From positions 2,272,001-2,336,000 of the forward strand of contig CAVUSO010000001.1 in NCBI GenBank assembly GCA_963744145.1: 64,000 nt of DNA. The letters run 5' to 3'. The translations under genes were made by a program, and so were the position numbers. Below the pieces are notes generated by a model. That model saw nothing but the letters and a program-made list of their open reading frames with translations. It made no database searches and had not been told where the DNA came from. Source of the DNA: an uncultured cyanobacterium. GTDB lineage: Bacteria > Cyanobacteriota > Cyanobacteriia > Cyanobacteriales > CAWUOF01. Below, piece by piece: positions 9,342 through 57,917 of this stretch; position 1 is the stretch's first letter, and every line of letters starts with the position of its first letter.

Positions 9342-9405
9342 GAGGAAATCGTCGATCGTTGCTTGTCAATTCTCAAATATTGACCAAATCCAGGTGAATT
9401 TTCTC

Positions 9406-12412: not shown

Positions 12413-12439
12413 AGCCAGTAAGCGACTATTTAATTATTT

Positions 12440-13084: not shown

Positions 13085-13397
13085 CTGAATAGTTCATTAA
13101 TATTTTTATCCGATCGCGATTCAATTGGTTAAAAATTAAGCGAGTTGAGGATATCAAACATTTAGATAATCTGGTGGATTGGCGATCGCATTGTCAATGG
13201 GTGAGTTCTGGGCAAAAATTGTTTCACAATGAAGATATATTAATTAAGATTGATCTGTAGGTGGGGGTGGGTTTTTATGATTAGTGGGTAAGTCTCAAAA
13301 ATCTGGGTGAACCCACCCCTACAAAAATCCGCAAATTGAGGATAAAATATGTGATTCAATTGGTATGGACAGTTTCACCAATTAAGTCCTGTAGGTA

Positions 13398-14306: not shown

Positions 14307-14323
14307 CCTGAACTTACCTAAAA

Positions 14324-21844: not shown

Positions 21845-22100
21845 TTATCGCTCCAAAATTTTGATTAGAATGCGAATTAGACTTTCTAGTTCATTAGGAA
21901 CGCGATAAAGGGTAAGCCCCTGTTGAATTTGCTTTTGCTCTCGGTGTATAATACCAAATTGCCAAATATCACCTGTGGAAACGGCTCCTTGCAGGATTGG
22001 TTGCTCATGATCTGTCCACTGGTCTAAAGCGATTAGCTCCACTGCAAGTTGGGTAAATCCTTTAGCTAAGTCGGCATTTTTTGCTTCAATCACAAGGAGT
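21845..22100 (-). pseudogene. 3' fragment of a PD-(D/E)xK-like protein, paralogue of 57297..57917
   Basis: IEAKNADLAKGFTQLAVELIALDQW...GAVSTGDIWQFG matches the C-terminal half of the 206-aa ORF. Confidence 0.75.
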
Positions 22101-22166
22101 TTGTCCGGGTTGGAGAATAGGGCGTTTGGACATGGTAGGATGGGATTTATTACAGATCAGCCCAGC

Positions 22167-26044: not shown

Positions 26045-26150
26045 CTGAGTTTTTATATTAACCATAAATTTAACTGGCTAGGATAAAATTTAGATATTAT
26101 TAGCCAATAAATCTGTGTAGAATAGATAGTAAATAGGATATGCTTATGAT

Positions 26151-27287: not shown

Positions 27288-27308
27288 AATCTGAATAATA
27301 TTAAACTT

Positions 27309-41917: not shown

Positions 41918-44314
41918 TTATTGTGTTCCTTCACTTAAATCAAGCAGTGGTTTTAATAAGTTGCGTTCTTCGATCGGAAGTTCTAGTAAGATACGGCGAT
42001 CGCTTTTACTTTCCCGATACCTAACAGCTATATTGAGAAAACGGATAGGGATTTGGAATTCGGAGCGATCGCTTGTTAGTTTCTGCCATACTTCTAACCA
42101 CGTTCTTACTGCTTTATCGTTGACTACTTCTGACATTAACATGGGGATACTTGCTACAAGTCCCTGTCCTAATGTGGAGATAACTTTGTAACGCTCATAA
42201 AGCGATATCAGTGTTTTAATTAGAGTTTTCCATATCTCTCTATCTTGCTCAAAATTGAACAGATTGTTGAGAATTGCTTTGGTGTTGTCGATGTTGAGAA
42301 CATCTACATCTGCAAAATAACTGAGTGCCTTTTCTAAAGCTAGGATACCTTCATCCCAACGACTTAGTACTAGTAAACACCCAGCACGGTTAAGGAAAAC
42401 ATACCGATCTCGATAACCAAGATTTATTGCTTTTTCAAGAGATATTAATGCTTGTTCATAGCGTCCGAGCTGACATAACACCCAGGCTCGATTATTCCAA
42501 ATAGTTGCGTAATAAGGTGGAAATTCTTCGGAAAATTGATCTTCAAGTTCAATTACTTTGTTGAAGGACTCTAAAGATTCCTCATAACGCCCTAATTTGA
42601 CAAGTAAATAGCCTCGTTCCAACCAAACTTCTGTTTCATTCGGGTTTAACTCAACAACCTTTTGATAACATTCCCAAGCTTCCTCATTTCGTCCTAGGTT
42701 TACTAAGATTTTGCCCATTTGAAACCAGACTAAAGCTTCTTGGGGATCGAGTTCAATTACCTTAGTAATAAATTTTAATGCTTCTTCATAGCGCTCCAGA
42801 TCGACTGATATAAGAATTTGGCCATACCAAGCCCATATATTTTTTGCATCCATCTCAATTGCTTTGTCAAGAGACACTTGTGCTTCCTTGCAATGTCCAA
42901 GAATTTTTAAGCAGTATCCCTGTAATATCCATTCCAACGTTTGACCGCGAAATTTTACCAATTTTTGGGTTACTTCCAGAGCCTGAATAAAATCGTTTTT
43001 ATGCAAGTAATTTTCATACTCATATAAATAGGCCATTACCCGTGGATCTTCTCCATCTTCTTTTGCAATTTCTAATGCTTTCAGCAGATATTCTCGCTCT
43101 AGTACGTCATCTGGTAACACTTCTAATCGCTGTTGCAACTCTGTTTGCGAATACCAGCATCGCAAAAAGTCTACAAATAAGCGAATTGGCTCACGTCGCT
43201 GCTTCTTAACATCCATACAAAAGCGCATCAGTGGCTCTTTCAGCTCATAATAAGACTCGCCTCCAATTGATTCAGCATAAACATAACCCATCTCTCGTAA
43301 ATTCTTTAACTGACTAGATGCTGTTTGGTGAGTGATAAAACAACATTGGGCAATTTCTTTGACAGTAACAGCATAGCGACGATCACACAAAAAGTCCACA
43401 ATTCCTCGCTGCTGAGGTGAAAGATGCACCATCCTTGACTGATAATAAGGTGTCAAATTATCCAGTGTTCGCATAAATGGTTCTACCAGTTCATCTAGCA
43501 ACTCGCGGGTTAGGAATTGGGAGAAAATAACATAGACGCGGGGGTTGCCCCCAGCTAGGTGATGAACTGCTTTAATTCGAGCTTGTCCAGTTGGAGTTTG
43601 AATGAAAGATTCTAATTCGCGATCGCTTTCTAATTTAGCTACATTTATCAATAGTTGGGTGGCATCTTCTGGTGTCAAATCCTTAAGCTCACGGATGCGA
43701 AAAAAGCCATAAAAGGGATTTTTTCGCAGTTTTACCCCATTAAACAAACTTGGCGATGTTGCCACAATTGTAAAAAAATCATTCTGTTGCAAAAAAGCAC
43801 GGAATCGTTTCTGACCAGACTCTCCTAATCCAGCAAATACCTCATCTAAGTTTTCTATAAGTAGGAGTAAAGTACGATTTTCAATAAATTCTTTAAGTAA
43901 GTCTGCGGCTGTATATTCAGCAGTCTCTGGCGATTGATAAAGCGCCTCTACCTTTTGCTTCAGCTTGGTATTATATTCTTCTGGATATTCTTTCTCGATC
44001 GCCGCAAAAATCCTTAACAACAACTTTAAAAATGACGTGATACTCCATTCTTCCTCTCGTAACCAGGCAATAAGAAGGCGATCACGCAAATCCTCCATTT
44101 TCGATATGCGGTGATAAATTAGTGAAACTAGATGGGTTTTGCCAATTCCACGGGGACCAATGAGTAGGGTGTAATGCTTTGCTGGTGTAATCGCACTGTC
44201 CCGAATCAGTTCAACCAGATGCTGTGCTAGCTGTTGACGCTGGACAAAAATTCCTTCCAACACTTCTGGTGTCATTGAACTAGGAGTGAAGCGAGAAATA
44301 AAAGTTGCTTTCAT
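41918..44314 (-). CDS. P-loop ATPase + winged HTH + TPR protein (STAND-like)
   Basis: GPRGIGKT; atypical Walker B LLIENLD; GGNPR; HTH VKEIAQ...QTASSQLKNL; several TPRs. ATG at 44314 overlaps the upstream stop (ATGA). Confidence 0.8.
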   Translation of the reverse strand: MKATFISRFTPSSMTPEVLEGIFVQRQQLAQHLVELIRDSAITPAKHYTLLIGPRGIGKTHLVSLIYHRISKMEDLRDRLLIAWLREEEWSITSFLKLLLRIFAAIEKEYPEEYNTKLKQKVEALYQSPETAEYTAADLLKEFIENRTLLLLIENLDEVFAGLGESGQKRFRAFLQQNDFFTIVATSPSLFNGVKLRKNPFYGFFRIRELKDLTPEDATQLLINVAKLESDRELESFIQTPTGQARIKAVHHLAGGNPRVYVIFSQFLTRELLDELVEPFMRTLDNLTPYYQSRMVHLSPQQRGIVDFLCDRRYAVTVKEIAQCCFITHQTASSQLKNLREMGYVYAESIGGESYYELKEPLMRFCMDVKKQRREPIRLFVDFLRCWYSQTELQQRLEVLPDDVLEREYLLKALEIAKEDGEDPRVMAYLYEYENYLHKNDFIQALEVTQKLVKFRGQTLEWILQGYCLKILGHCKEAQVSLDKAIEMDAKNIWAWYGQILISVDLERYEEALKFITKVIELDPQEALVWFQMGKILVNLGRNEEAWECYQKVVELNPNETEVWLERGYLLVKLGRYEESLESFNKVIELEDQFSEEFPPYYATIWNNRAWVLCQLGRYEQALISLEKAINLGYRDRYVFLNRAGCLLVLSRWDEGILALEKALSYFADVDVLNIDNTKAILNNLFNFEQDREIWKTLIKTLISLYERYKVISTLGQGLVASIPMLMSEVVNDKAVRTWLEVWQKLTSDRSEFQIPIRFLNIAVRYRESKSDRRILLELPIEERNLLKPLLDLSEGTQ

Positions 44315-45483
44315 CCTAAACCTCTGTGTTGTCGCCAGTAGCGTTGAATTAGCTGATATCGAAAGCAAAATGTGCCATCAGATTTCTGAATAATGTAGTG
44401 ATCCCGCTGGATTAGCGTCAAAACATCCCGTACTTTTTCAATATTGGCATTAGCTAGACAAGCTAAAAGCTGATTGTATAGATCATTAAAAGATAGTGGT
44501 ACTAATGCCAAAGCCAAAATGTCCAACAAGTTTAGTGCTAGCGGTATTTCATCACTCAGATAGTAATTGTCAATGCGATCGCGATAGTGGCGTAAATCCC
44601 AACGATCTTGGGGATCGCTGAGGTAATTATTAACGATCTGATCGGCAATAATTGAGTCAACTGGATTATCCTGCTGCACCATCTCGTCAACAATGTGGTG
44701 AATGAAGTAGGGTATACAGTCAGCCGCATTAGCGATCGCCTTCGCAGTTATGATTAGATCATCGGTCTGAATGTTTTCTCCTTCAAGTAATCGCCGTGCT
44801 AAATCTTGAGCATCAGCATCTGACAGAGGTGGCACATCCTCTTTCTGCATATCATTAGTTGGAGCGTTTTTATATCCTGCTCTTTTCAGGGAAGTGAGGA
44901 CGTTGTGCAAACCAATTGAACCTGTAAAAACCATCCTTAAGCTGTCGTAAGTTTGCCGGAGCGATCGCAAAGTATCTAGCACTTCCATTGCTACTGTTTC
45001 ACCCGAATCTTGCTTAATGTTATCAAGCATTAGTGGCATCTCATCCCAGAAAAAAACTACCGTGCGGTCTTTTTGATTCTCTACCAGGTCTGCGATAGTT
45101 TTGGTTAGCAGAATTTTCCATTGGTCAGCAACCTCATTTGGAAATTTGATGATGCCACCAATCTCTACACCTTTCATAATTTTCAGCCATTCTCGTGCTT
45201 TGCCCTTAGTTTGTCCTAAAACAGTTAAATGTCCTTCTAAATCATTAAAAACTGTCTGAGCAAATTCCAGTGGCGATCGTACTCCCTCCAGTTCTCGGTA
45301 AATTGGTAACTTATCGGATGGTGGTTCCGCAGTCATTTTCTTGATAATGCTTGTTTTACCCATCCGTCGCTCTGCACTCAGAACAAGACTTTGCCGCTCC
45401 AGAATTCGCCACAAGCGTTGAATCAGTTTCTCTCTTCCTACAACTTCAGACGGAGGAATTTTGCCTCCTGGATTGACTCTCAT
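44311..45483 (-). CDS. P-loop ATPase (archaeal-ATPase/STAND-like)
   Basis: VGRE, AERRMGKTS, FFWDE, FTGSIG, PYFIH; C-terminal wHTH-like segment. Confidence 0.8.
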   Translation of the reverse strand: MRVNPGGKIPPSEVVGREKLIQRLWRILERQSLVLSAERRMGKTSIIKKMTAEPPSDKLPIYRELEGVRSPLEFAQTVFNDLEGHLTVLGQTKGKAREWLKIMKGVEIGGIIKFPNEVADQWKILLTKTIADLVENQKDRTVVFFWDEMPLMLDNIKQDSGETVAMEVLDTLRSLRQTYDSLRMVFTGSIGLHNVLTSLKRAGYKNAPTNDMQKEDVPPLSDADAQDLARRLLEGENIQTDDLIITAKAIANAADCIPYFIHHIVDEMVQQDNPVDSIIADQIVNNYLSDPQDRWDLRHYRDRIDNYYLSDEIPLALNLLDILALALVPLSFNDLYNQLLACLANANIEKVRDVLTLIQRDHYIIQKSDGTFCFRYQLIQRYWRQHRGLG

Positions 45484-45748: not shown

Positions 45749-47887
45749 TTAGCGGATAAAAAGATTACATCTAGGGCAATTTTGTCCACTTTTACCTTGT
45801 CCTGTACAAGCTCCACAATAAGGACAAATTTCTCTGATTCGTCCCGATTCTGGCACTTCATTAGACTCACATAGTGCTGAAAGTTGATCTCGTCCCAACA
45901 ATTGTTCTCGTGCCATCGCATGAACAGCGTCGTATGAAGACACATCTGCTTTTGATGTTGGTGGTTTCATTTTTAATGGTTCAAGTTTGGGAATAGGATT
46001 CTTACACTTGTCACATTCTCGCCAACTCCATTTAGCTGCACACTTGGGACATTTGCCTTCATTATCCTTAAATTTCGATCGCACACTGCTAAGGTCAGCA
46101 TCACATACCGGACACAAAGACGGATGGATACCATAAAGTAAATCCACCCCTAAAGTATGAAAGCGGAAAAACCGTTGGAATCGCTCCAATGTACTTAAAT
46201 CCAACGGACTAGCAGGCATCATACCAACACGATAACCAGCATTATGATTAACAAATAACTTATAATCCTCTGAAGTCATAAATTTTTCACCAATATTTAG
46301 CATTCGTTGAATTGACTCTGGTGCTACCTTCCTCATTTTTCGATCGCGCGGATCGGTTGGGTGTACGAGCAACACGGAAATCCTCTTCTGGTTATGATTG
46401 CGGTTTTGTTGTTTGGCAACTTTATTAGTTGGAACGACTAGGGTTTTGCCATTATGATAAAGAGTATCTACAGTCTTTTTGACTTCATCATGATTACCAA
46501 AAAGCGATCGCGCTACTGGAATTATTACCAGTTGAATATGAGTTGGATGAGATGGCGATCGCTGATTACCATTAGATTGCCAGATTAAATCTATATTTAT
46601 ATTCAAAGTTCTTTGATCGGGAGGTTGCACTACAACAGTCCACCCTTCCCACTGTAATGCTTGATTAAACTCTAACTCTGGTGGGAAATTCTCAGGTTTA
46701 GTATTTGCACTATCAAACCCAATCCAACGCAGAGCTAACAGCACACAGCCATAGATATACTTGGCATAATCTAACTGGATGCTACACCGACTCGGACTTT
46801 GTTCTGCTAAGTTAGGATTTTGAACTCCTGCAATTATCTCCCATAACTGGCTGATGCGCCGATAATCCGAATCCATTTTCAAAATATTGGTCGGTTTTAA
46901 AGGTGATACCACATCCGGTTTACTAGATAGACTTTTATAAAGAACTGAGTCTAAACAACTGCTGACCTCAGTATATAAACGGCTAATTTTAGCTCTCAGT
47001 TCCTTGGATTTTTCGTATTCTTGTGAATGGTCTTGTTCAAGTATTGTATCTAGATTTTTCCAGAGTTTCTTGAGCCTCTGATCTCGGAGCCAATTGTATT
47101 GATATCCGGTAAATAAATTTTCATGTAGTGTCTCTATTTGATAATAGGCACGATTTACTTCACGAAGTCGCTCTTCTAACCATCCGAGTAACCGTCGAAT
47201 TAGGGTGGCGACCACCCGATTTTCATACAAGTCTAGTGTTTCTTCAGGTACTTCACTGATAATTCGAGCAGGAGTAATGCGTGTTGCAGTACGAGACTGC
47301 CATAATTCTGGTCGAGACGCTAAATGTTCGATGGCATTTGGTGGAATACGTCTAGCGCGGTCGATCGGCATTACTCGACGTTCTACTATCAATGTCCGCC
47401 TGGGTTTACTACATATTCTAATTAAAGAAGGTAAAGTTTCTGCGATCGCATCGTCGATGTTCAATGCTTTCTGATCCGTCAGAGAATCGCGAATAGTACC
47501 GGGAGAAAAAAACGGCAGACATAATAGTTCTTCTTTTGATAAGCTGGGCGAAAGTTTGTTAGCTTGATTTGCAAAAAGAACCAAAGCATCTACCATCACT
47601 TCATCAAGAAGTGTCTGCGATGGCACCTCAAACTTATACCGCCCAATAATTATTCCGACCGGTTGAGAAATCCGCACAGAGCAGCATCCCTCAGCATCAA
47701 CTAAAATTGGCAAATCGCCAGTATGTTCTTGCTTATTGTCGTTGAATGCAATTTCTATTTCGCCATCTTCAGTAGTGCAGTTAATCCGTATTCGGTAGTC
47801 GTCAATACTATCTAAATGACGACGTTCCCCAGGTTGAACAACTTCTAACTCACCAGTCCACCGATTAACTAAAGAAAGAGTTACCAT
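45749..47887 (-). CDS. McrC-like DUF2357 protein with C-terminal Cys-rich Zn/FeS-binding region (CnuCD-like)
   Basis: PRRTL...DLYENRVV...PTNILKMDSDYR (DUF2357-like); CPVC, CPKC, CDKC, CPYC, CPRC; no clear DAKY catalytic motif. Confidence 0.7.
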   Translation of the reverse strand: MVTLSLVNRWTGELEVVQPGERRHLDSIDDYRIRINCTTEDGEIEIAFNDNKQEHTGDLPILVDAEGCCSVRISQPVGIIIGRYKFEVPSQTLLDEVMVDALVLFANQANKLSPSLSKEELLCLPFFSPGTIRDSLTDQKALNIDDAIAETLPSLIRICSKPRRTLIVERRVMPIDRARRIPPNAIEHLASRPELWQSRTATRITPARIISEVPEETLDLYENRVVATLIRRLLGWLEERLREVNRAYYQIETLHENLFTGYQYNWLRDQRLKKLWKNLDTILEQDHSQEYEKSKELRAKISRLYTEVSSCLDSVLYKSLSSKPDVVSPLKPTNILKMDSDYRRISQLWEIIAGVQNPNLAEQSPSRCSIQLDYAKYIYGCVLLALRWIGFDSANTKPENFPPELEFNQALQWEGWTVVVQPPDQRTLNINIDLIWQSNGNQRSPSHPTHIQLVIIPVARSLFGNHDEVKKTVDTLYHNGKTLVVPTNKVAKQQNRNHNQKRISVLLVHPTDPRDRKMRKVAPESIQRMLNIGEKFMTSEDYKLFVNHNAGYRVGMMPASPLDLSTLERFQRFFRFHTLGVDLLYGIHPSLCPVCDADLSSVRSKFKDNEGKCPKCAAKWSWRECDKCKNPIPKLEPLKMKPPTSKADVSSYDAVHAMAREQLLGRDQLSALCESNEVPESGRIREICPYCGACTGQGKSGQNCPRCNLFIR

Positions 47888-47890
47888 AGC

Positions 47891-50242
47891 CTACCGTTTA
47901 AATTTATTAATCTCGCGATCGAGCAAATCAAGAGATATAGCAGGATTGTCCAGGGAATTATCATTAAAATGCTGCTTAATTGTATCTCTTACTTCTTGCA
48001 GCCTAGAGCGCACATTAGGATCAGTTCGATTTTGGACTTGCCAAAGTAACTTCCTAGCTATAAAGTGATCTAACCCGTTGCTTAATGAACCCCCTGTTGC
48101 TTTATAAGCAGGAAGAAAGATCAACAATTGATCCAATAAACGTTGTCCGTAACCTACTTGGAAATATTCATCCAGTTTTGCACCAATCTTCTTAATACAA
48201 TCATTAGTAGTTGCTCGCTCTTTTGGGGAAAAACTTTCGATCGCATTCTTCACAGCTTTGCGAAAGTCTAAAATATTTAGGCTAGCTGCTTGTGTAGAAG
48301 ATAATTTTTCTTGTTGGGGTGCTTTATCTATTTGCAGAATTTGGGCACGATCATATACTTTGCGAGTAATTTCGTAAGTGGACTCATCTGTATTAGCGGT
48401 GCCAATAAACCAAACATTATCAGGAATCGGTAGGTTCACAGCCCCATTTTTCAATTTCAGTCCTTTAGGAAGATTACCGCTTGTAGGGTCGTGATTTAGA
48501 AGTTCAATCTCTCTATCTTCTAGACGACCTTCCATAATCGAGAGCAGATCAGCAAAATAGTATTCTACCCGCGATAAATTCATTTCATCTAATACAATAA
48601 AATAGGGATAATCACGATAGGATTTGGTTCCAGCTTCATAAAGCGCTCTCGAAAAGGGAGATTCATTAAAAACCCGGAAGAAAGAATTGTAAGACCCTAG
48701 TAAATCCAGTTTATCTCGCCAACTAGACTGCACCTCGATTCTGGCAAATTTTCCACCGACTGCGTAAGAAAAATATTCTGGTAAGCTAGTCTTACCTGTA
48801 CCACTCACCCCTTGGATAATAATTAATTTGGAAGATGCCATTGAAGCAATAAATGCCTGAATTATATGCACATCATAATAGTGGGCAAAAAGCGAACTTT
48901 CAGCTTGCCCTGTTTCTAATTCTTCGCGAGTTGGTAAACTTGCCATCCAAGTACGAGTTTGATGAGCCAACTTATTAAGGGTATTAACATTTTCCCTCTC
49001 AATATTGTCAGGGACATGATTAGTTTCACTATCAATTTCAGCAAAGTTTGCAAAGGCTTGAATTTTCTTATCTTTAAGAGTCCCCAGCATTCGCTCTAAG
49101 TCTTCTATTTGTTCTTTCCAATATTCATTAAGTAGTTTGAGTCTATCTCTTTCTTTGCGGAGATTTTCAGTTTCTTCTCTTCCTCTTTCTTGCTGGCGGC
49201 GGATGCGTTCTAAATCATCGACTTTAGCTTGTAAATCCCGATACATTGCCTCGAAATCGATTGCAGCTTCAGCACGACGACGCAATTCAGTAAGTTCCGC
49301 TTCTGACGGATATTGCTCAAGAATTTGCTCGTACTCTCGCAGCTTATTCTCCAGTATTGTATTCTCTTGCAACAGTCTTTCTGGTGAACCTGATGTAGAT
49401 TGAAGAATATTTTTACTTTGTTGTAATTCTTCTATAAGCCGATAATTTTGTTGTTCGATAACTTCAATCCGTTGCTGAATACCTTTTTTTTCAGCTGTTA
49501 ATCTATTGACCGCATCTTCTGAGCAATTACGCTCACGTTCAGCTATTTCTCGTTCCTTCTGTTGCAATTTTTTCTTTTGTTCAGTAAGCCGGTTATTTTC
49601 ATCTTTAATGTCTTGCTCTCGATCTTCAATGTCTTGTTCTCGGCGTTTAACTTGCCTTTGTAAATTGCGAATATTATCTTCTCTTGTTTGAATTGACTTT
49701 TCTTTCTCATCGGCTTCTTGGCGACGTAATTCTAGCTCCTGAAGCGTTTTTTCTCTGGTTCTTTGGCGGTGTTCACTTGCTAGAGATTGTGCGTCTTCAA
49801 TAATTTTATCAGCTTCATTCTGAGCATTACTCTTAATATTTTGAGCTTCACTGATTATTTCTTCTGCTTGTATCTTTGCAGCTTGAACAATCCGTTCTCG
49901 CTCTTTTTTAATTTCCTGTTCTTTTTGGATTTTCCACCCTTGACGAGCAGATGCTTCTAACTCTTTAAATCCATTGATAGCTTGTTGTTCCTTATTATCC
50001 AATTCCTCCCTTCTTTTAAGAAATTCATCTTCTTCTGCTTTATATTTTTCTAATTCGGATTCTAGTTCCTTGATTTTTTTTTGAAGCTGTTGTGGATCTT
50101 GAGACTGAGCATTAACATTGACTGGATTTTGAATAGATGCAACAGGACTAGTAGGTTTCACAGTAGATTCAACCTTTGCTGGTGGTTGCGAAGGTAGATT
50201 AGAGCGAGTTTGATTTACATTTCTTCTATTCTTATTAGCCAT
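47891..50242 (-). CDS. Coiled-coil McrB-family AAA+ GTPase (CnuB-like)
   Basis: About 340-aa coiled coil; GVSGTGKT; LDEMNLSRVEYYFADLLS; GTANTDEST...KVYDRA (NxD signature). Confidence 0.85.
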   Translation of the reverse strand: MANKNRRNVNQTRSNLPSQPPAKVESTVKPTSPVASIQNPVNVNAQSQDPQQLQKKIKELESELEKYKAEEDEFLKRREELDNKEQQAINGFKELEASARQGWKIQKEQEIKKERERIVQAAKIQAEEIISEAQNIKSNAQNEADKIIEDAQSLASEHRQRTREKTLQELELRRQEADEKEKSIQTREDNIRNLQRQVKRREQDIEDREQDIKDENNRLTEQKKKLQQKEREIAERERNCSEDAVNRLTAEKKGIQQRIEVIEQQNYRLIEELQQSKNILQSTSGSPERLLQENTILENKLREYEQILEQYPSEAELTELRRRAEAAIDFEAMYRDLQAKVDDLERIRRQQERGREETENLRKERDRLKLLNEYWKEQIEDLERMLGTLKDKKIQAFANFAEIDSETNHVPDNIERENVNTLNKLAHQTRTWMASLPTREELETGQAESSLFAHYYDVHIIQAFIASMASSKLIIIQGVSGTGKTSLPEYFSYAVGGKFARIEVQSSWRDKLDLLGSYNSFFRVFNESPFSRALYEAGTKSYRDYPYFIVLDEMNLSRVEYYFADLLSIMEGRLEDREIELLNHDPTSGNLPKGLKLKNGAVNLPIPDNVWFIGTANTDESTYEITRKVYDRAQILQIDKAPQQEKLSSTQAASLNILDFRKAVKNAIESFSPKERATTNDCIKKIGAKLDEYFQVGYGQRLLDQLLIFLPAYKATGGSLSNGLDHFIARKLLWQVQNRTDPNVRSRLQEVRDTIKQHFNDNSLDNPAISLDLLDREINKFKR

Positions 50243-50260
50243 TTATACCTCTGACTATCA

Positions 50261-51910
50261 TTAGCTGATTAGTAAGCGCCATGCTTTGATAACAGAACGG
50301 ACAATTTGATAGGTTTTTGCAACTAAATCCTGAACCAAAATGATGGGATCATTGTGACTTTCACCTGCATGAGCGCCGAACTGGTTACGGTTTTGAGTAA
50401 TCTGGTCTAAATCTGATAAAAAAGCAGGATTTTCTTGTAGTAGGTGTTCAAGAATGCGTCGATGTAAGCTAGATTTTCGACTAGATGACAATAGAAATGT
50501 AGCAATGTATGGACGTAAGGAATTTGGATCACCATCAAGGACACTACGAATTGCTCCTAGTTTAGTACATAAAATTCGCTCAGGGATCTCGCTTGTGGAA
50601 CAAGCTTGAACTGTATCGCTCAAACATTGTTTTAACGCATTTTCCTTTTTGTAGGATTCCCAAATATTATCAGGTATTGTATCAACTTTTAGTAAAGATA
50701 TCATTAATTGCTCTAAAACCCTTTGAACTCGTGTGAGCGTTGTATCTATCTCATTAAATCCACTTTCTAAAAACGATCGCGATTGTTCCATCCGTTCAAT
50801 TTCTTCCCAAACTGGCTCCCATAATGGATCAGGAGGTTGTCCAATCTCCAAAACTACTTTATTGTAAACTTGACGTGCTACAGTAACAGGTTCAAGATTG
50901 GGAGGTTGTTTAGATTTCCAGATTTGACGGCTATGAGATTGTAAATCTTCTACAATTTTCTTACCCTCTTCACATTGGGATGTGGCAAAATTTAGTAAGC
51001 GGACCCAACGAAAACCATCGGGAAGCCCAAAGGGACAACGGATCGAAAATAAACCATCATAAGATCCTGTAATAATGCAAGATACTAACAAATAAAAACG
51101 TTGCGATCGCTTATTCAAAAAGCGTACTCTAAATTTTTCTCCTAGTTCGGCTTTTTTAGGTTTTTTAATTGGTAAGTTATCGATTTCACGAATTTTAATA
51201 AACTCACCGACATCAACTGAAGGATGATCATCGTTAGTTGGCTCTTGAACTCGTTTGAACAAACGGCGGTATGTTTCTATTGCCAATATAACATTAGAAG
51301 TATTAGGAGGAGTTAAATTTTGCTTAATCCAAGGTAGTTGAAAAGCTTGGGTAATATTCGAGCGATTGGGGTCAGCAAAATAGAGATTTTCTGTATAAAA
51401 AAAAGGAAGCAACTCTCCTGCTGTAGCATCTTGAAAAATCCAACCATAGCTGGTTCTTTCTTCCTCCCCTTCACCTTCCTGTTGGAGAATTTTTTCTCCT
51501 TTTTCAGTCAGACGACCATGATTATCAAGATAGTCTTGATTTTTCAAGTCCATCATAACATTAAAGAGGAAATCTTTGTGCTGTCCCATTAATTTTGCTT
51601 GCTCTTGATGGCTGATGATTCCAGCACGAGCTAAACGTAAAGAAGTCAGTTGTAGTAAATCTAATTGCCGATCTGTCACTTGAGGAGCAGCAATTCTCCA
51701 TCCATAAACGGGCCATAAAATAGTCTGCTGGTAATCATTCTGAGCTTCATCTGGTCGAATAAATCTGAGAATTCCCACATTTGGCTCTCTAGGTTCTCCA
51801 TCTGAACCGCGATCGCTAGACAAAGGTAGAGGAAATTCATCCTCAAAAAGTAGTTCCTCATCGTCAAATTCAAAGGACATATTGTTATCTTCGCGTTCAG
51901 ATGTCTGCAT
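50261..51910 (-). CDS. wHTH + HEPN-like effector (CnuE-like)
   Basis: N-terminal wHTH ending GRLTEKG; FQDATAGELLP; C-terminal RNQFGAH (Rx5H HEPN motif). Start at 51910 or 51880. Confidence 0.65.
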   Translation of the reverse strand: MQTSEREDNNMSFEFDDEELLFEDEFPLPLSSDRGSDGEPREPNVGILRFIRPDEAQNDYQQTILWPVYGWRIAAPQVTDRQLDLLQLTSLRLARAGIISHQEQAKLMGQHKDFLFNVMMDLKNQDYLDNHGRLTEKGEKILQQEGEGEEERTSYGWIFQDATAGELLPFFYTENLYFADPNRSNITQAFQLPWIKQNLTPPNTSNVILAIETYRRLFKRVQEPTNDDHPSVDVGEFIKIREIDNLPIKKPKKAELGEKFRVRFLNKRSQRFYLLVSCIITGSYDGLFSIRCPFGLPDGFRWVRLLNFATSQCEEGKKIVEDLQSHSRQIWKSKQPPNLEPVTVARQVYNKVVLEIGQPPDPLWEPVWEEIERMEQSRSFLESGFNEIDTTLTRVQRVLEQLMISLLKVDTIPDNIWESYKKENALKQCLSDTVQACSTSEIPERILCTKLGAIRSVLDGDPNSLRPYIATFLLSSSRKSSLHRRILEHLLQENPAFLSDLDQITQNRNQFGAHAGESHNDPIILVQDLVAKTYQIVRSVIKAWRLLIS

Positions 51911-54900
51911 ATCCTTCCTCACTGCGACAGAGATCAATAAAAGCTTTTAGTATCTTAGACCAGGGTGTACCATCGGAGCGCATTCCCGCAACACAGGTAG
52001 CATCTCCTACTCCAATTAAAACACATCGAGCGCGGCTAAATGCAACACAAAGCCGATTGGGTAATGCGGTAAACCCAAGACGCTGTTCAATTGATGAGTT
52101 CTGATTACTACGAACTGTGGAGAGATATACTATATCATACTCGCGTCCCTGAAAAGCATCAACAGTACCAACACGCACCCGCTCTTGGAGATGCTCAGGT
52201 AAACCGTTACGCTGATCTGCGATCGCATCTTTAAGTGCTTCTTCTTGAGCAGAGTAAAATGCAATCACTCCCACCATTCCAGTAGGTTGATTTGGATCAA
52301 AATTAGGATATTTTTCCTCAATTCGTGGTAAAATACGGCGCAGTTCAGCCATAATCCGAATAACTTCAGCAGGTCTTTCCCAGCTCGATTTACCAGACCG
52401 CTTTTCACCTCCTTGATGATCTGGGATATTCAACCAAACTACAGGTTTTTGATTGTACTCTCCTGTGTAATTCGGTCGTGCTTCTGGTTTGACAAAATTG
52501 GAATTAAGGGGGCTTTCCGGATAAAAATAATCACTAATAAATTTACCAATTGTTGGGTGCATCCGAAACTGATCTGTCAATTGAGCAGTCCGTTCAATCC
52601 CATCTATTGCTGTTTGTTGAGGCAGAGATGCCCAGAGTCTTTCAAATAAACTCTTTCCATAAACTTCTCTTAGCTTTTCATCACCTTCTTTGGCTAAACT
52701 CTGCGCTATTTCTCGCTCCAAAACATGGGGAAGTTGTTTGTGATCACCAACTAAGATAATTCTTCGTCCTTTCACCATTGGTATTAGTAAATCTAGTGGG
52801 TTTGCTCTTGCTGCTTCATCTACTATCACTAGGGTAAATGTTCGATCATTCATTCCTAGGTGCTTCGAGTCTGCTTGTCCACAACTAGCAGCTTGAACTG
52901 GTGAATATTTCCGAATAACTTCTCTAACGTGATTGGGGGATTCCTCTAAATCTCGCACAAATAGTTCAAGGGTATCTTGTACCCCTTCCTCACTTTTAAC
53001 GCGAACTGCTTCGACTTCCTCAATAGCAGCTAGGAGACATCGTTCTATTTTCTCATCAGAAACATCCTGTTCAGCAATGGCTTGGGTAATAGGAATCTCT
53101 AGCAATTGTTGGCGAATACCAATACAGGCATTTTTCAAAGAAAGCCAAGGTTCTAGATTAACTGTATTTTCTTCACTCCACAATATCGCGACTTCCACAG
53201 CTTCAATAATATCATGAGAAAGATGATCTAAATAAGGATCTAAAAAACGTCGCAGCCTTCGAGCTTGCCGATTTCCATCCTCTTTGAAACTTTCTGCTGT
53301 AATACATTGCTGATTGAGTCGTCGCTCCAGTTCATCTCGATCATCAGCATCTTCAATTATTGGCTGATTTTGCGCTTGAATGACTGGAACAGTACCTGCA
53401 AGATGATCGATTTCAGCAACTCGTTGAGCAGATAAAAAGGTTTCTGCTACATTACGAAAATCTAAAAGGATTTCACGAGTTCCTTCACGTCCACCTGCTG
53501 AGGTGCGCCAATGGGAAAGATAACCTTTGAGTTTGTCAATTAACACCAGAGTTGGAGATGGTTCGGTAGAGAGGTGAGAACGAACTACTTGAATAACTTG
53601 GTTTCTCCAAGTTTGAATGGTTTCAGCACCTCGATCTTCCCCTTTTTTGCCTCCTAATCTATCTACCGGAAGTCCACCAATACTCATACTAGCGATCGCA
53701 TTATCTACTGCTTCATGCTGAAGACTTGTTACCAAAACAGTTTCCAACACTTCACCTGGATCTCGTCCATCATTAAGCATCATCAGCAGTGCTTGAATTA
53801 CTCTGGTCTTTCCCGTTCCCGGAGGTCCCTGAATCAGCGCAATATCCGGTGTACTCAGTGCAATTCTCAGCGCTTTTTCCTGAGCAGGTGTTGGTCCATT
53901 TTCACCAAAAATCTTGCGTGCAGTTTTAGTTAGTAGTTGCTTTTTCCGGGGAGGAATTACTCTATCAAAGGATTTACCTTCTAGAATTAAACCCAAATAA
54001 GGAAGACCAGAACGTGCCGATTCTAAAGTAGTTAGTGCTTTTTCACGTCTTTGAATTCGAGATTTTTCCAGACCCATTGAGGGATAGATTTCCCCATCTT
54101 TGTTAGGATATTCCTGCTGACCTTCCCAAACCAAAGTTAGGCAATGGGTATTAAGATTGTATCCTGATACTGATCCTTCAGGCATACCGATGTTATCTTG
54201 AATGGTTACAGGGATACCATCTCCTGAAATATGTTTAAGCCAAGGTGTTATGTTGGCAGATGGTTTTAAATAAAAATTTAGTAAATTTCTATTACCATCG
54301 TTAGAAATAAGACTTTGTATTCCGTTGTATGGTAAAGGAGATAGCAGCCCAAAACGCTCTTCTAAAATTCGATTTTCTTCAGCATTATACTCTTTCCAAC
54401 TCGCAATCCAACTATTATTTTCCTGAACAGCTTTGCTCAATGCTGAAATAGCCGCCGATCGCATTGTGCTAGCAACGGTTTGATCACAAAACTCTAATGA
54501 TTCCCGCATCAAATAAATAGAGCGATCGCTCAAGTTACGCCCTAGTCGCTTCATAGCTTCTGCTACAATCTGCCCGTCTTTTTGGGGAACTAAATTGAGT
54601 GACCAAGACTTTCCTAACACAGAAAATCCCTTCTGAAAATCTGGATCTTTGACCCCTGATGTTACAAACCAATAACCTAAGTGATTAAGTATAAATTCTT
54701 CTTTTAATTGGCGTTTAGCATCTTGAAAGTTTTTGACTTTACGCCAATTCTTACTAACAACTGTTTCAATAAACTCGTCAGTGATAGCAACTTCTAATTG
54801 AACTGGGATTTCGGAATTAGGTACATTAAAAGAACGCCCATCAATTTCAATTGTATTGTCTGTCGCTTTCATAATGCAACCTACAATTAAAGTGTGCCCT

Positions 54901-55124
54901 GATTGCAGTTCTGCCAACAGTATTTTAGCATCAGGTGAATCTGGTTTAATTTCAATGATTGTCTCATCATCCCTACCGTTAGGAATTTGAAAGCATAGAG
55001 TGTTTTCATCAATTCGCTTTAATTCAACAATCTTATCCTCCCAATTATCATTATTTCTTAGGTTGAAGCTATGTAAAAAATGCCCACCTACTTGTTTGCC
55101 AAATTTGAGGTCAAATAATTTCAT
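51897..55124 (-). CDS. SF1 UPF1/DNA2-like helicase (CnuH-like)
   Basis: QGPPGTGKT, IVDEAARA, LVGDHKQLP, QFRMHP, GTVDAFQGRE, NRLCVAFSRAR. Confidence 0.9.
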   Translation of the reverse strand: MKLFDLKFGKQVGGHFLHSFNLRNNDNWEDKIVELKRIDENTLCFQIPNGRDDETIIEIKPDSPDAKILLAELQSGHTLIVGCIMKATDNTIEIDGRSFNVPNSEIPVQLEVAITDEFIETVVSKNWRKVKNFQDAKRQLKEEFILNHLGYWFVTSGVKDPDFQKGFSVLGKSWSLNLVPQKDGQIVAEAMKRLGRNLSDRSIYLMRESLEFCDQTVASTMRSAAISALSKAVQENNSWIASWKEYNAEENRILEERFGLLSPLPYNGIQSLISNDGNRNLLNFYLKPSANITPWLKHISGDGIPVTIQDNIGMPEGSVSGYNLNTHCLTLVWEGQQEYPNKDGEIYPSMGLEKSRIQRREKALTTLESARSGLPYLGLILEGKSFDRVIPPRKKQLLTKTARKIFGENGPTPAQEKALRIALSTPDIALIQGPPGTGKTRVIQALLMMLNDGRDPGEVLETVLVTSLQHEAVDNAIASMSIGGLPVDRLGGKKGEDRGAETIQTWRNQVIQVVRSHLSTEPSPTLVLIDKLKGYLSHWRTSAGGREGTREILLDFRNVAETFLSAQRVAEIDHLAGTVPVIQAQNQPIIEDADDRDELERRLNQQCITAESFKEDGNRQARRLRRFLDPYLDHLSHDIIEAVEVAILWSEENTVNLEPWLSLKNACIGIRQQLLEIPITQAIAEQDVSDEKIERCLLAAIEEVEAVRVKSEEGVQDTLELFVRDLEESPNHVREVIRKYSPVQAASCGQADSKHLGMNDRTFTLVIVDEAARANPLDLLIPMVKGRRIILVGDHKQLPHVLEREIAQSLAKEGDEKLREVYGKSLFERLWASLPQQTAIDGIERTAQLTDQFRMHPTIGKFISDYFYPESPLNSNFVKPEARPNYTGEYNQKPVVWLNIPDHQGGEKRSGKSSWERPAEVIRIMAELRRILPRIEEKYPNFDPNQPTGMVGVIAFYSAQEEALKDAIADQRNGLPEHLQERVRVGTVDAFQGREYDIVYLSTVRSNQNSSIEQRLGFTALPNRLCVAFSRARCVLIGVGDATCVAGMRSDGTPWSKILKAFIDLCRSEEGYADI

Positions 55125-56512
55125 AATTGATCTACCATAGATTGATTACGCACCTTTGCTCTAATTCCTGAAGGGAAGACAATCAATATTTTATCAAATA
55201 GCCAGACAAATTCACCTGGAGCGCAAGTTCGTTGATGATTTCTAACATCTTTAGTATCCCAAGTATCTTGGCTTAAGTTCTTAAGGCAATAAATTTTATC
55301 ATTGCTACTATTGCGTTGAAACCCAAACTGTGCTAATGTGCCGATTACTTCTGAATTTTCACTGATCAGACGCAAGGGAATAATTCGCTGTTCTTTGTCC
55401 AATACAAACCGATAGGATTTTTTAACTCTTTTAAGTTCCTTTATTTCGTTTTCATCCAAGTTATCAATAGGTGGATCGGAATCAAAGAAACCAAGTTCAA
55501 TCGGGCGATCGCTTGTTTGACCACACCAATCACAAACCAGTGAGGCTCCTCGGATATCTGGTAAATAGGAAGTAGCACCACATGGGCACAATGCTGTTTG
55601 ATCGGCAGCTTCTTCTAATGCACATAACCATTCTTCTGAAGAAGGTCGTACCCAAGGATCTAATATACCCGGTTCAAATGCTTGTCTACAAAGTTCTTGT
55701 AGTCTCCTAGTTAATACTTTTCCCCTTGGTAAACCATAGCTAGAGTAATTTTGCTTGTTCTCTTTTGAATCAATAAATGGTAACTCTCCTTGTAGAGCAA
55801 TCTCCTCCATTTCTGGCTCACCATCGATTACTTGATCACCAAAAAAGGGATGATTTAGCACTAATAAGTAAAAAATTGCTACTGCTAAAGACCAGCGATC
55901 GGATGCGTGATTAGGAAAACGAGACTCTTTCAGGATCTCTGGAGCAATAAATTGTTCTGTTCCAATCACTTCTGCTAAAGATGTTCCTGGAATAATTAAG
56001 TTATCAGGATCGATGAGTTTAATAGATGTTTGTTTGCGATCTGATGGGACAAGGACGTTTTCCCAGGATAAATCCACATAACATAATCCATTACGGTGAA
56101 TTTGCTCAAAGGTTCTAGCTAACTCGGCACAAATTCTTAAACGACGACGTAACCCACCTGTGGAAATGTGCCAGTTGGGATCGCGATCGCGTGGACAAAC
56201 TAACTCAGATAAGGGTATAGAATCTTTAACTCGATCCATTACATAGCCTAAATGTGGCTGATCTAAAACAGCGATCGGCAATACTAATGAGTCGATCTTC
56301 AAGTTTCGTCTTGTCAGCAAGCGAAGTTGCTTGCGAGCATCATCAGTATGTCTAGAGTTGGGTGGTAGACAAACTTTTACTAAAATATTAGCATCCTCAG
56401 TAGTAAATACAATTCCTTGTCTACCCTGATTTAGCTGTTCAACTAGCCTGTAGCGTCTTCCCTCTAAATCTCGAACAATTTCACCTGGTATTGGCAAAGA
56501 GAATTTAGTCAT
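55121..56512 (-). CDS. Ser/Thr kinase with Zn-ribbon (TerY-P-type)
   Basis: GRQGIVF, VK, YVDLSWENV, IDPDN, GTEQFIAPE, SDRWS; CPCG...CDWC. Confidence 0.85.
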   Translation of the reverse strand: MTKFSLPIPGEIVRDLEGRRYRLVEQLNQGRQGIVFTTEDANILVKVCLPPNSRHTDDARKQLRLLTRRNLKIDSLVLPIAVLDQPHLGYVMDRVKDSIPLSELVCPRDRDPNWHISTGGLRRRLRICAELARTFEQIHRNGLCYVDLSWENVLVPSDRKQTSIKLIDPDNLIIPGTSLAEVIGTEQFIAPEILKESRFPNHASDRWSLAVAIFYLLVLNHPFFGDQVIDGEPEMEEIALQGELPFIDSKENKQNYSSYGLPRGKVLTRRLQELCRQAFEPGILDPWVRPSSEEWLCALEEAADQTALCPCGATSYLPDIRGASLVCDWCGQTSDRPIELGFFDSDPPIDNLDENEIKELKRVKKSYRFVLDKEQRIIPLRLISENSEVIGTLAQFGFQRNSSNDKIYCLKNLSQDTWDTKDVRNHQRTCAPGEFVWLFDKILIVFPSGIRAKVRNQSMVDQL

Positions 56513-56526
56513 GTTTAATCTTTTAC

Positions 56527-57186
56527 TTAAAACTCCAGATCATCATCATTAAGCAAGTGAAATGGTAAATTACTGGATGAGTTAGGATTTTTAGCAGTTG
56601 AACGGGCCATAACTGACATAGTAACAAATCGAAAGAAGTCCATTAGTTTGACAACTTCTGTCGCACGCACAACTGGAATTTCTGAATGATTAACGAAACG
56701 TTTAAGGACATCAAAATCGCAATCATTTCCAATCCCAACAGCTAAACGAACTGCTCGTCCTCCTCGGTCGGAATCTAACAATTCTTGAAGCGGTTCTTCC
56801 CAATCATCATTGGGCTGACCGTCACTAACCAAAACGATACTAGGTAGATAAGAGCGTTTCGGGATCTGTTGTTCATCTTTCAACAACTGGAGAGCTATTT
56901 TAAATGCTGCTCCCATCGCTGTAGTACCCCTAGCAACCAAAGTAGGTAAATGAACGTTTTCGATCGGAGTCAAAGGAAGAAGTAGCTGAGCATTACTGTC
57001 AAATGTGATAATGCTAGTATGCAGATGACTGCGAGGATCATGTACATCTTTGAATTTTTGGTGCATTTCCGTCAGTGCAGCGTTAAGAGTATCAATTTTC
57101 TCGCCCTCCATACTGGTACTGACATCTGCTAGTACAATAACTGGTAGTGGTCGTCTCTGGGGCAGAAAGTCATTAAGGTCTTGCAT
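56527..57186 (-). CDS. TerY-like vWA-domain protein
   Basis: RRPLPVIVLADVSTSM (MIDAS DxSxS), GTTAMG, LVSDGQPND, FFRFVTMSV. Confidence 0.9.
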   Translation of the reverse strand: MQDLNDFLPQRRPLPVIVLADVSTSMEGEKIDTLNAALTEMHQKFKDVHDPRSHLHTSIITFDSNAQLLLPLTPIENVHLPTLVARGTTAMGAAFKIALQLLKDEQQIPKRSYLPSIVLVSDGQPNDDWEEPLQELLDSDRGGRAVRLAVGIGNDCDFDVLKRFVNHSEIPVVRATEVVKLMDFFRFVTMSVMARSTAKNPNSSSNLPFHLLNDDDLEF

Positions 57187-57296: not shown

Positions 57297-57917
57297 CTAT
57301 GTTTTAGGTTCAATAATTTTGACTAAAATTCGCAAAAGGTCTTCTAGATCAGCAGGAACACGATAGAGATCGAGGTTTTGAGTTACTTGACGAGATTGTC
57401 GATCAAACTGACCAAATTGCCAAATATTCCCAGTTGAAATTGCACCTGGTAAGATCGGTTGTTCAGAATCTATCCATTGATCGAGGGCAATTAATTCAAT
57501 AGCTAGCTGCACAAAACCACGTTCTAGGTCTTCATTTTTGGCTTCAATTACGAGAAAAGTTTGGTGATTTTGGAGGAGATAGTCTAGGGAACCTTTGAGT
57601 TGATTACTAACAGCAATAGGATATTCGACGTTAAGAGTAGCTTGGGTATAGTGCAACAGATCAGTTAACACTGGAGCAATCAGAAATTCTCGTCTTGCTA
57701 TTTCACTGGTGAGACTAAGACGAGGTAGACTTTCTTCAATTCTAGCTTTAAGATCAGTAAGGCGATCGAGGGTGCCCATATATTTAGGCAGATTTAAGGA
57801 GCAACGTTGGAGAGAAACGTTAAAATATGCTAGAATATCTTGCGGTGCAAAGTTGAGTTTAAAGTAGTCAGCAAAAGTGTAAGACTGATCAGGTTGAATA
57901 ATCTTCGTTCTAAGCAT
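57297..57917 (-). CDS. Cyanobacterial PD-(D/E)xK-fold (restriction endonuclease-like) protein
   Basis: SEIARREFLIAP...GSLDY...VIEAK...QL; common expanded family in cyanobacteria. Confidence 0.75.
   Translation of the reverse strand: MLRTKIIQPDQSYTFADYFKLNFAPQDILAYFNVSLQRCSLNLPKYMGTLDRLTDLKARIEESLPRLSLTSEIARREFLIAPVLTDLLHYTQATLNVEYPIAVSNQLKGSLDYLLQNHQTFLVIEAKNEDLERGFVQLAIELIALDQWIDSEQPILPGAISTGNIWQFGQFDRQSRQVTQNLDLYRVPADLEDLLRILVKIIEPKT

Follow-up and report, generated by a model that had tools for sequence, protein, structure and literature searches.

Layout of the locus

The locus is chromosomal (7.6-Mb contig) and consists of six co-oriented minus-strand genes, at positions 57186-45749 of the window, i.e., of the whole 64,000-nucleotide stretch that was analyzed (Table 1). 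The sequence-only reading had described six co-oriented genes with gaps under 20 bp or overlaps, and without frameshifts, and the ORF coordinates agree: all frames are open in the ORF listing, and the six ORFs are free of internal stops. The vWA and kinase genes are separated by 14 nt, the kinase and CnuH genes overlap by 4 nt, and gaps of 18 nt and 3 nt lie between CnuE and CnuB and between CnuB and CnuC, respectively. CnuH and CnuE overlap by 41 nt with the TTG start of CnuE, or are 16 nt apart with the ATG start at 51880, which agrees with the N-termini of the homologues in the alignment. The flanks of the operon are wider (110 nt upstream, 265 nt downstream). A scan for promoters and terminators gave sites no commoner than in shuffles (29 vs 34.5 expected), so that the limits of the operon are drawn solely from gene spacing. 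An upstream PD-(D/E)xK gene (57297-57917) and the downstream AAA_22 and AAA_16-wHTH-TPR genes were considered as parts of the system and left out, since they recur in no related locus.

Table 1. Genes of the operon, in order along the minus strand
Product	Position in the window	Strand	Length
TerY-like vWA protein	56527..57186	-	219 aa
Ser/Thr kinase, C-terminal Zn-ribbon (STK-ZnR)	55121..56512	-	463 aa
CnuH, UPF1-like SF1 helicase	51897..55124	-	1075 aa
CnuE, wHTH and C-terminal RNxxxxH motif	50261..51880 from ATG (to 51937 from TTG)	-	539 aa from ATG; 558 aa from TTG
CnuB, coiled-coil-like NxD McrB-like AAA+ GTPase	47891..50242	-	783 aa
CnuC, DUF2357 McrC-like protein with CPxC Zn knuckles	45749..47887	-	712 aa

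Domain content of the six proteins

Domains were called with Pfam, PADLOC (PADLOC 2.0) and NCBIfam, and motifs were read directly from the sequence. On these matches and motifs the six domain assignments made earlier are right, with the HEPN fold of CnuE kept as putative. The vWA protein matched Pfam VWA_2 (2.1e-11) and VWA (1.5e-10) and has an intact MIDAS motif (DVSTS at residue 21); D21-x-S23-x-S25, T89 and D122 are invariant in 10/10 rows from PP2C-less and PP2C-containing loci. The kinase matched Pfam Pkinase (5.6e-15), and its residues K46, D147, N152, D168/D170/N171 and APE 190-192 are invariant across nine rows from both lineages. Of its two Zn knuckles, CPC (309) and CDWC (327), the former is one residue shorter than the CPKC or CSKC of seven relatives, a deletion that might impair the kinase. 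The kinase also matched the N-terminal STK part of the PADLOC MkoA model (9e-7); the idea that PP2C-less kinases are specially Mokosh-like was dropped, since PP2C-containing kinases give the same MkoA match in PADLOC. The TerY-P models of PADLOC 2.0 matched no vWA protein, PP2C or kinase from either lineage.

CnuH matched Pfam AAA_11 (1.8e-27) and AAA_12 (3.7e-37), the NCBIfam IGHMBP2-family helicase (4e-42) and PADLOC MkoA (5.1e-102), with Walker A (GPPGTGKT) at 433 and DEA at 769. Its N-terminus is extended by ~410 aa and Walker A is followed by a long insert, and the AAA_11 match stretches over residues 414-800 against 257 model positions. The operon thus has, upstream, a UPF1-like SF1 helicase with an insert after Walker A, as Type II CoCoNuTs do, in which this insert is described as helical.

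CnuB matched Pfam AAA_5 (8e-6), NCBIfam McrB (0.004) and PADLOC PDC-M26A (6.6e-43, residues 265-585). Walker A (GVSGTGKT) is at 478, Walker B (DEMN) at 552 and NTDE at 617-620, so that this McrB-like GTPase has the shortened NxD signature of Type II, in which E or D usually comes next. Its N-terminal region of ~440 aa is charged and, judged by composition, coiled-coil-like: E, K, R and Q together account for 48% of residues 50-440, vs 23% of the GTPase part. Type II CnuB is described as a GTPase with a long coiled coil fused to its N-terminus (PMC11090510).

CnuC matched Pfam DUF2357 (7e-11, residues 154-251) and no Hsp70 or HEAT family of Pfam at E<=0.01, and has Zn knuckles at 592 (CPVC), 613 (CPKC), 625 (CDKC), 688 (CPYC) and 704 (CPRC). 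Type II CnuC is described as DUF2357 with an inactivated PD-(D/E)xK and a CPxC Zn-ribbon, without Hsp70/HEAT parts (PMC11090510). The lack of an obvious catalytic motif, which had been presented as an oddity of this protein, is real, in that the 12 closest homologues share no invariant Lys within residues 340-600, but it is published as the norm for CnuC throughout Types II and III (PMC11090510). Since D512, E568 and D582 are invariant among these 12 homologues, CnuC may retain some catalysis.

In CnuE, a MarR-like wHTH precedes a C-terminal domain that is all-alpha. The RNQFGAH motif reported earlier was found again at 517 in TTG numbering (R498-N-x4-H504 in ATG numbering); it is the single conserved R..H motif of the protein, lies near the C-terminus and is invariant among homologues. 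Type II CnuE is described as an elongated wHTH with one HEPN domain and an Rx4-6H motif (PMC11090510), and the HHpred support given for that domain is E = 9.2 (Supplementary file 1 of that paper). Here, CnuE matched no Pfam family at E<=0.01, its C-terminal part used as a profile matched no PDB sequence, and the profile of the whole protein gave PDB matches only at the level of the wHTH or of chance. Against 16 genuine cyanobacterial HEPN_RiboL-PSP/MAE_28990 proteins, hhalign aligned no more of the C-terminal profile than the 16 columns at the motif (E 0.19, probability 0.3%). The AF2 model has a mediocre mean pLDDT of 61.6, and Foldseek with this model found no PDB match at E<=0.001; the 50 rows listed in a wider set of matches included no named HEPN nuclease, which is not evidence against the fold. 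As leads only, ESM Atlas placed the C-terminal part at 0.79 to HEPN_RnaseLS/LsoA clusters, and a whole CnuE homologue at 0.95-0.97 to unnamed clusters. CnuE is a putative HEPN RNase, a label that for Type II CnuE comes mainly from a short motif, so that RNA targeting as a model for the entire family is putative as well.

A CnuC with DUF2357 and Zn-ribbons but no Hsp70 part, together with one R..H motif in CnuE, assigns the locus to Type II.

Related loci and the absence of PP2C

Related loci were scanned for with single proteins as queries (scans with proteins P0063 and P0065 found nothing). The syntenic relatives comprise five complete six-gene loci and partial ones, at 60-81% protein identity, and the recurrence of this gene order in other genomes, with proteins 60-80% identical, is far beyond chance. 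Two of the related loci, AP018224.1 (L004, a Nostoc linckia plasmid) and JADEXV010000213.1 (L007), are author-classified: across the six proteins they are 61-81% identical to the window locus, and Supplementary file 3 of PMC11090510 lists them in its Type II sheet with six genes and PP2C as "Gene not present". That the locus is a CoCoNuT-like system, as first proposed, is thus borne out by gene content, by motifs and by orthology to tabulated CoCoNuTs. The orthologues that carry this PP2C entry include those of Nostoc linckia NIES-25 plasmid 2, Nostocales LEGE 12452, Calothrix FACHB-156, Nostoc FACHB-87, FACHB-973, Planktothrix FACHB-1355 and FACHB-1375 (PMC11090510); PP2C-less rows are tabulated also in Actinomycetota and P. 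aeruginosa, and the window genome's own copy was not found in the portion of Supplementary file 3 covered here, with 202 Type II rows.

The sequence-only reading had called the missing PP2C unusual. The absence itself stands: vWA and kinase are only 14 nt apart, where a TerY-P triad would have vWA, PP2C and kinase together, and no PP2C_2 (Pfam) match falls within the 64-kb window, the nearest being ~270 kb away. It is not unusual, since PP2C is absent in 7/7 related Nostocales loci with a visible vWA-kinase junction (ORF gaps of 0-15 nt) and this form of Type II is already tabulated in Supplementary file 3 of PMC11090510. None of 33 flanking ORFs carried PP2C either. The PP2C-less state is lineage-wide rather than an oddity of the window copy. 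Likewise, a kinase without an off-switch is a fair description of the operon but not of the genome, which in other places has seven PP2C_2 matches above the cut-off of Pfam.

Seven-gene, PP2C-containing forms were found in six cyanobacterial loci and one of Paenibacillus, and in 7/7 of them (L010-L012, L014, L019-L021) the vWA and kinase genes have a PP2C_2 match (E 1e-30 to 1e-35) between them. The PP2C-less rows are set apart by a branch with 100/100 support in the CnuB tree (12 rows) and by one with 100 SH-aLRT support in the CnuH tree (13 rows), and within the PP2C-less clade as sampled the window locus branches deepest. The dN/dS of vWA, STK, CnuE and CnuC was 0.06-0.30 (16 pairs), i.e., purifying selection. 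The conservation of the six-gene clade under such selection shows that a Type II CoCoNuT can be kept without the TerY-P phosphatase.

Interpretation and proposed working

We read the locus as an anti-phage operon of a filamentous cyanobacterium, namely a Type II CoCoNuT (coiled-coil nuclease tandem) that is complete and present in a single copy, from an established sub-lineage with a PP2C-less vWA-kinase pair, and give this reading a probability of about 0.88. The locus could instead be two independent systems placed side by side, a Mokosh-like vWA-STK-CnuH-CnuE and a McrBC-like CnuB-CnuC: PADLOC MkoA is matched by CnuH (5e-102) and, in its N-terminal STK part, by the kinase, Mokosh type I operates without McrBC (10.1101/2022.05.11.491447), CnuH-CnuE-like pairs are known outside CoCoNuTs (PMC11090510), and the related locus L008 is reduced to vWA-STK-CnuH, without CnuB and CnuC. 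However, unrelated housekeeping genes follow this three-gene remnant, so that it looks truncated; the two halves are adjacent, in the same order and with short or no gaps, in 5/5 complete relatives and 7/7 seven-gene loci; and Type II/III CnuB is nearly always associated with CnuH (PMC11090510). Since CnuC lacks a canonical nuclease motif, the McrBC half would moreover have no recognisable effector of its own. We regard two systems as improbable.

A seven-gene system that recently lost its PP2C and is heading to inactivation would fit the presence of seven-gene forms in the same cyanobacterial order, the visible degradation of two relatives (L001, with a CnuH-CnuE fusion, and L008), and the shortened Zn knuckle of the window kinase. 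Against such decay, the 7/7 PP2C-less loci come from several genera and form one deep, fully supported clade, vWA, kinase, CnuE and CnuC are under the purifying selection described above, the window copy keeps six open frames with catalytic residues retained, and PP2C-less rows occur also in Actinomycetota and P. aeruginosa (PMC11090510); we find this explanation very improbable.

The assignment to Type III made in the sequence-only reading, which has in its favour that vWA, kinase, CnuH, CnuE, CnuB and CnuC are also the general gene set of Type III-A (PMC11090510), is refuted already on defining features: in Type III-A, Hsp70-like NBD/SBD and HEAT repeats are fused to CnuC, which has lost the nuclease fold and the Zn-ribbon, and CnuE has two HEPN domains, with RxxxxH and C-terminal RxH motifs (PMC11090510), whereas here CnuC has no Hsp70-like/HEAT part and ends in CPxC Zn-ribbons, and CnuE has one conserved R..H motif and, at 539 aa, belongs to the Type II size class; Type III-B and III-C have a separate CnuD gene (Hsp70-like) and Vsr or PLD effectors, in the form of either a helicase-fused Vsr nuclease or a CnuE of the PLD type (PMC11090510), whereas the operon has no extra gene, hence no separate CnuD, and no Vsr or PLD family match in Pfam; and the authors of PMC11090510 themselves file the orthologues under Type II.

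As a Type II CoCoNuT, the locus is closest to the PP2C-less form of Bell, Sahakyan, Makarova, Wolf and Koonin (eLife 2024, PMC11090510), with the same six genes in the same order, and differs by the CPC first knuckle of the kinase, which is CPxC in the relatives. With the TerY-P triad of vWA, PP2C and Ser/Thr kinase (Anantharaman et al. 2012 and Gao et al. 2020, cited in PMC11090510) it shares a MIDAS-bearing TerY-like vWA directly upstream of a Zn-ribbon Ser/Thr kinase, but not the PP2C member. Mokosh type I comprises MkoA (STK and UPF1-like helicase) and MkoB (a PLD nuclease) (Millman et al. 2022, 10.1101/2022.05.11.491447), and resembles the locus in coupling a kinase and a UPF1-like helicase to a nuclease (putative in the window) without a phosphatase; the window kinase and helicase, both matching MkoA, are encoded by genes that overlap by 4 nt. 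Unlike in Mokosh, these are separate genes and not a fused MkoA, the effector is a wHTH protein with a putative HEPN domain instead of a PLD protein (no PLD match in Pfam), and vWA, CnuB and CnuC genes are added. Canonical McrBC shares the Walker A/B AAA+ GTPase and the DUF2357 McrC N-domain partner encoded immediately downstream, but has an NxxD signature, a DNA-reader domain and a competent PD-(D/E)xK McrC, where the window proteins have NxD (NTDE), a coiled coil (by composition) and a partner without the canonical PD-(D/E)xK lysine.

From the families involved, we infer how the system might work. CnuB would form a McrB-type GTPase ring held via its coiled coil, with CnuC as a McrC-type partner that would have lost its nuclease chemistry and act as an adaptor or nucleic-acid binder. 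CnuH, the UPF1-like helicase, would load on RNA, and CnuE, the wHTH protein and probable HEPN RNase, would be the effector, cutting RNA of the virus and/or of the host. The vWA protein with its MIDAS and the kinase with its intact catalytic residues may constitute an upstream sensing or licensing module, which would make this the kinase-gated RNase suggested earlier. Lacking a cognate PP2C, phosphorylation would be either reset by a host PP2C or a one-way commitment (abortive infection). It is conceivable, if rather unlikely, that PP2C-less Type II CoCoNuTs are a distinct, non-resettable version, in which licensing of the CnuH-CnuE RNase by the vWA-kinase pair is final and leads to abortive infection, in the manner of Mokosh type I with its kinase-helicase unit, and that the seven-gene forms use PP2C to return to rest.

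The locus is one more intact chromosomal member of a published family, and as such changes little. The natural six- and seven-gene forms within the same cyanobacterial order nevertheless make the role of phosphorylation testable, and the non-resettable version, if true, would offer a ready-made comparison for the function of the TerY-P phosphatase. The seven-gene Type II CoCoNuTs, including Obs of P. aeruginosa, have the same core and accessory genes as the window but carry a PP2C_2 gene between vWA and kinase, and their proteins are only ~20-35% identical to those of the window. Obs is the only Type II member for which we found experimental evidence of defence: it protected P. aeruginosa against PP7 and LeviOr01, which are RNA phages, and the DNA phage MPK7 (10.64898/2026.04.06.716636).

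A Type II CoCoNuT operon

The operon consists of six ORFs without internal stops, all co-oriented on the minus strand from 57186 to 45749. From first to last, the genes are spaced by a 14 nt gap, a 4 nt overlap, a 41 nt overlap, an 18 nt gap and a 3 nt gap; the junction between CnuH (the helicase) and CnuE becomes a 16 nt gap if CnuE starts at the ATG at 51880, which agrees with the N-termini of its homologues. The intergenic flanks are wider (110 nt upstream, 265 nt downstream), and the genome has a single copy of the operon. By motif reading, the vWA protein has the MIDAS motif DVSTS, the McrB-like GTPase CnuB carries both Walker motifs (A and B) along with NTDE, which is the McrB signature in its NxD form, RNQFGAH lies close to the C-terminus of the 558-aa CnuE ORF, and the McrC-like CnuC ends with four CPxC and one CDKC. 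The locus is real and intact, and the sequence-only reading had described its content correctly: six unbroken co-oriented ORFs, with their domains and motifs, were all recovered.

Features of the operon and its immediate neighbours
Feature	Position	Strand	Length and assignment
vWA gene	57186-56527	-	219 aa; VWA_2/VWA by profile search
Kinase gene	56512-55121	-	463 aa; Pkinase by profile search
CnuH gene	55124-51897	-	1075 aa; AAA_11/AAA_12, IGHMBP2-family helicase, PADLOC MkoA 5e-102
CnuE gene	51937-50261	-	558 aa counted from TTG; no family by profile search
CnuB gene	50242-47891	-	783 aa; AAA_5, weak McrB match, PADLOC PDC-M26A 6.6e-43
CnuC gene	47887-45749	-	712 aa; DUF2357 by profile search
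AAA_22 ATPase	within 41918-45483	-	390 aa
AAA_16 NTPase + MarR-like wHTH + TPR repeats	within 41918-45483	-	816 aa, STAND-like layout
PD-(D/E)xK protein	57297-57917	-	206 aa, upstream of operon; PADLOC PD_DExK 2.8e-27

Type II CoCoNuTs are described (PMC11090510, eLife 2024) by four proteins: CnuB is of the NxD type with a coiled coil, CnuC retains a CPxC Zn-ribbon and an inactivated PD-(D/E)xK fold, CnuH is UPF1-like, and CnuE combines a wHTH with a single HEPN domain. In Type III-A, Hsp70-like and HEAT parts are fused to CnuC, and CnuE has two HEPN domains (PMC11090510). The operon fits Type II for every feature that could be tested, and the Type III features are not found. Supplementary file 3 of that paper lists under “Type II CoCoNuT” both AP018224.1 (Nostoc linckia NIES-25 plasmid) and JADEXV010000213.1 (Nostocales LEGE 12452), our related loci L004 and L007, which share 61-81% identity with all six window proteins; no entry for the CnuC of the window turned up among the 202 rows of the file that were covered. 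The initial assignment as CoCoNuT-like therefore holds, but Type III has to be replaced: the locus is a Type II CoCoNuT, from a PP2C-less sub-lineage already tabulated in print.

CnuC had also been singled out as unusual for having no obvious catalytic motif. No lysine is invariant at residues 340-600 among the 12 closest homologues, but the lack of a canonical PD-(D/E)xK is the published state for all Type II and III CnuC (PMC11090510). H509, T511, D512, R514, E568, R569, Q571 and D582 (window 46140-46365) are invariant in the same homologues; the overall pattern fits “no canonical PD-(D/E)xK”, and some other chemistry may be possible.

The missing phosphatase

With 14 nt between the vWA and kinase genes, the operon does lack the PP2C, but this is not unusual. 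In all seven related loci showing both genes (L003-L009), the two ORFs are 0-15 nt apart, leaving no space for a gene, so it is not the case that all homologous loci carry a PP2C. No PP2C domain was found in the 33 flanking ORFs (≥120 aa) of the related loci; flanking genes vary between genomes, and the six-gene block is therefore a mobile unit. Supplementary file 3 (PMC11090510) has “Gene not present” in at least 98 cells of its PP2C columns, counted over 202 Type II rows. The 17 such rows inspected (8 Actinomycetota, 7 Cyanobacteriota, 2 P. aeruginosa) have two such cells each, both PP2C, which would give 49 PP2C-less rows among the 202 if the pattern holds throughout. Since these rows are published, the PP2C-less form is already in print as a table entry, without discussion there. 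The claim that the kinase has no off-switch is limited to the operon, because PP2C_2 is matched above the Pfam cut-off at seven other places in the genome, of which the closest is about 270 kb away.

Three Pseudanabaena loci (L010-L012) were found with one distant CnuE representative as query, and a second such representative brought up a locus in Paenibacillus (L014). When 401 cyanobacterial genomes were scanned with a CnuE profile, four matched: the window's own and three more (L019-L021). The system is sparse, occurring in about 1% of the species genomes sampled. In all seven of these loci a PP2C_2 gene (240-272 aa; E 1e-30 to 1e-35) separates the vWA gene from the kinase, and after it come the same five genes as in the six-gene form. 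Because seven-gene loci are found alongside PP2C-less ones, both forms coexist in cyanobacteria.

Two trees, one for CnuB (12 rows, from a careful search) and one for CnuH (13 rows, from a quick search), each have a long, fully supported branch that sets the PP2C-less rows apart, with the window as their deepest member. In this small sample with long branches, the group is placed with the Paenibacillus locus and not with the five cyanobacterial seven-gene loci; for that reason we draw no conclusion about a donor. Between PP2C-less loci (16 pairs), vWA, kinase, CnuE and CnuC have Nei-Gojobori dN/dS values of 0.06-0.30. Both lineages keep the MIDAS residues of vWA unchanged, as well as K46, D147, N152, D168/D170/N171 and APE of the kinase. 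Low dN/dS and invariant catalytic residues together argue that the six-gene form is a maintained working variant and no wreck.

In the window's kinase, the first Zn knuckle (residues 309-311, window 55580-55590) reads CPC. Seven related loci have CPKC or CSKC here, as do the Planktothrix rows tabulated in PMC11090510; the one-codon deletion is particular to this copy.

CnuE and the proposed working

The wHTH of CnuE is solid in the AF2 model, where residues 70-141 reach pLDDT 80-91 (mean 61.6, pTM 0.43), and the wHTH model PF24409 matches 26 of 36 family members. The C-terminal half is modelled as all-alpha (helices 290-538). R498 and H504 are kept in 11/11 rows from both lineages, spaced as Rx5H in the window's lineage versus Rx4H in the seven-gene lineage, and Rx4-6H occurs within the last 120 residues in 103 of 128 full-length representatives taken from the best 150 matches. 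CnuE matches no Pfam family at E≤0.01, HEPN_RiboL-PSP matches 3/36 family members weakly, and a PDB profile search with the C-terminal domain gave no matches. Against 16 genuine cyanobacterial HEPN proteins, hhalign aligned the motif alone (E 0.19). No sequence method puts this domain into a HEPN family. A structural match to Roquin, in whose N-terminal region a ROQ domain interrupts a HEPN domain (PMC4346627), is suggestive, although Z values of this size arise by chance between helical bundles. Published HHpred support for Type II CnuE is E = 9.2 for HEPN and E = 0.26 for wHTH (PMC11090510 Supplementary file 1), and the RNase label of the family is based mostly on the short motif and AF2 models unpublished in detail. 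We consider the C-terminal domain a putative HEPN, an assignment that is probably right.

Parts, gene order, conservation and wHTH fold are the demonstrated portion of the mechanism; its working can be proposed from family knowledge (McrBC, UPF1-like helicases, HEPN, vWA, kinases) and the model in PMC11090510. CnuB would form a GTPase ring with CnuC as its non-catalytic partner, CnuH and CnuE would act as an RNA-directed helicase-nuclease effector, and vWA and kinase would serve as upstream sensor or licence. The seven-gene homologue Obs protects P. aeruginosa from two RNA phages and one DNA phage (10.64898/2026.04.06.716636). In Mokosh type I, a kinase, a UPF1-like helicase and a nuclease work without a phosphatase (10.1101/2022.05.11.491447). 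The operon resembles Mokosh in that the PADLOC MkoA model is matched by both CnuH and the window's kinase; the word “Mokosh” is absent from the main text of Bell et al. (PMC11090510). Since kinases with and without an accompanying PP2C match MkoA equally, the likeness reflects general kinship and is no speciality of the six-gene form.

Decayed relatives and neighbours

Two related loci are degraded. In L001 (Iningainema MAG, 1181-3379), a 732-aa ORF fuses CnuH residues 1-453 in frame to CnuE residues 285-558, without helicase core and wHTH, and the CnuB match is in two pieces. L008 (Calothrix MAG, 9290-14592) is a truncated remnant with vWA, kinase and CnuH alone, followed by an unrelated LRV/HEAT protein, a RecQ-like helicase, PheS and SurE.

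Directly downstream of the window's operon, the two genes at 41918-45483 (minus strand) overlap by 58 nt, with a promoter-like site (10/12 matches, with TG) at 45590-45561; the pair was not found adjoining related CoCoNuT loci. Upstream, the PD-(D/E)xK protein has 12 more tblastn matches in the genome, one in the window near 21851-22156, and is a multi-copy family outside the operon. At 31420-37119, where GC is low (26-32%), a 1218-aa Sacsin-like/AAA_11 protein and a 272-aa AAA_12 ORF overlap and look like a single SF1 helicase gene broken in two by a frameshift. A DDE_Tnp_1 transposase gene abuts it, and a DDE_3 transposase lies at 37764-38438. A possible further defence cluster of the same island is the run of four co-oriented genes at 23711-29353 (plus strand), which encode a dynamin-like GTPase, an AAA_15/AAA_21 ATPase, a YjcZ-like protein and a patatin-like phospholipase.
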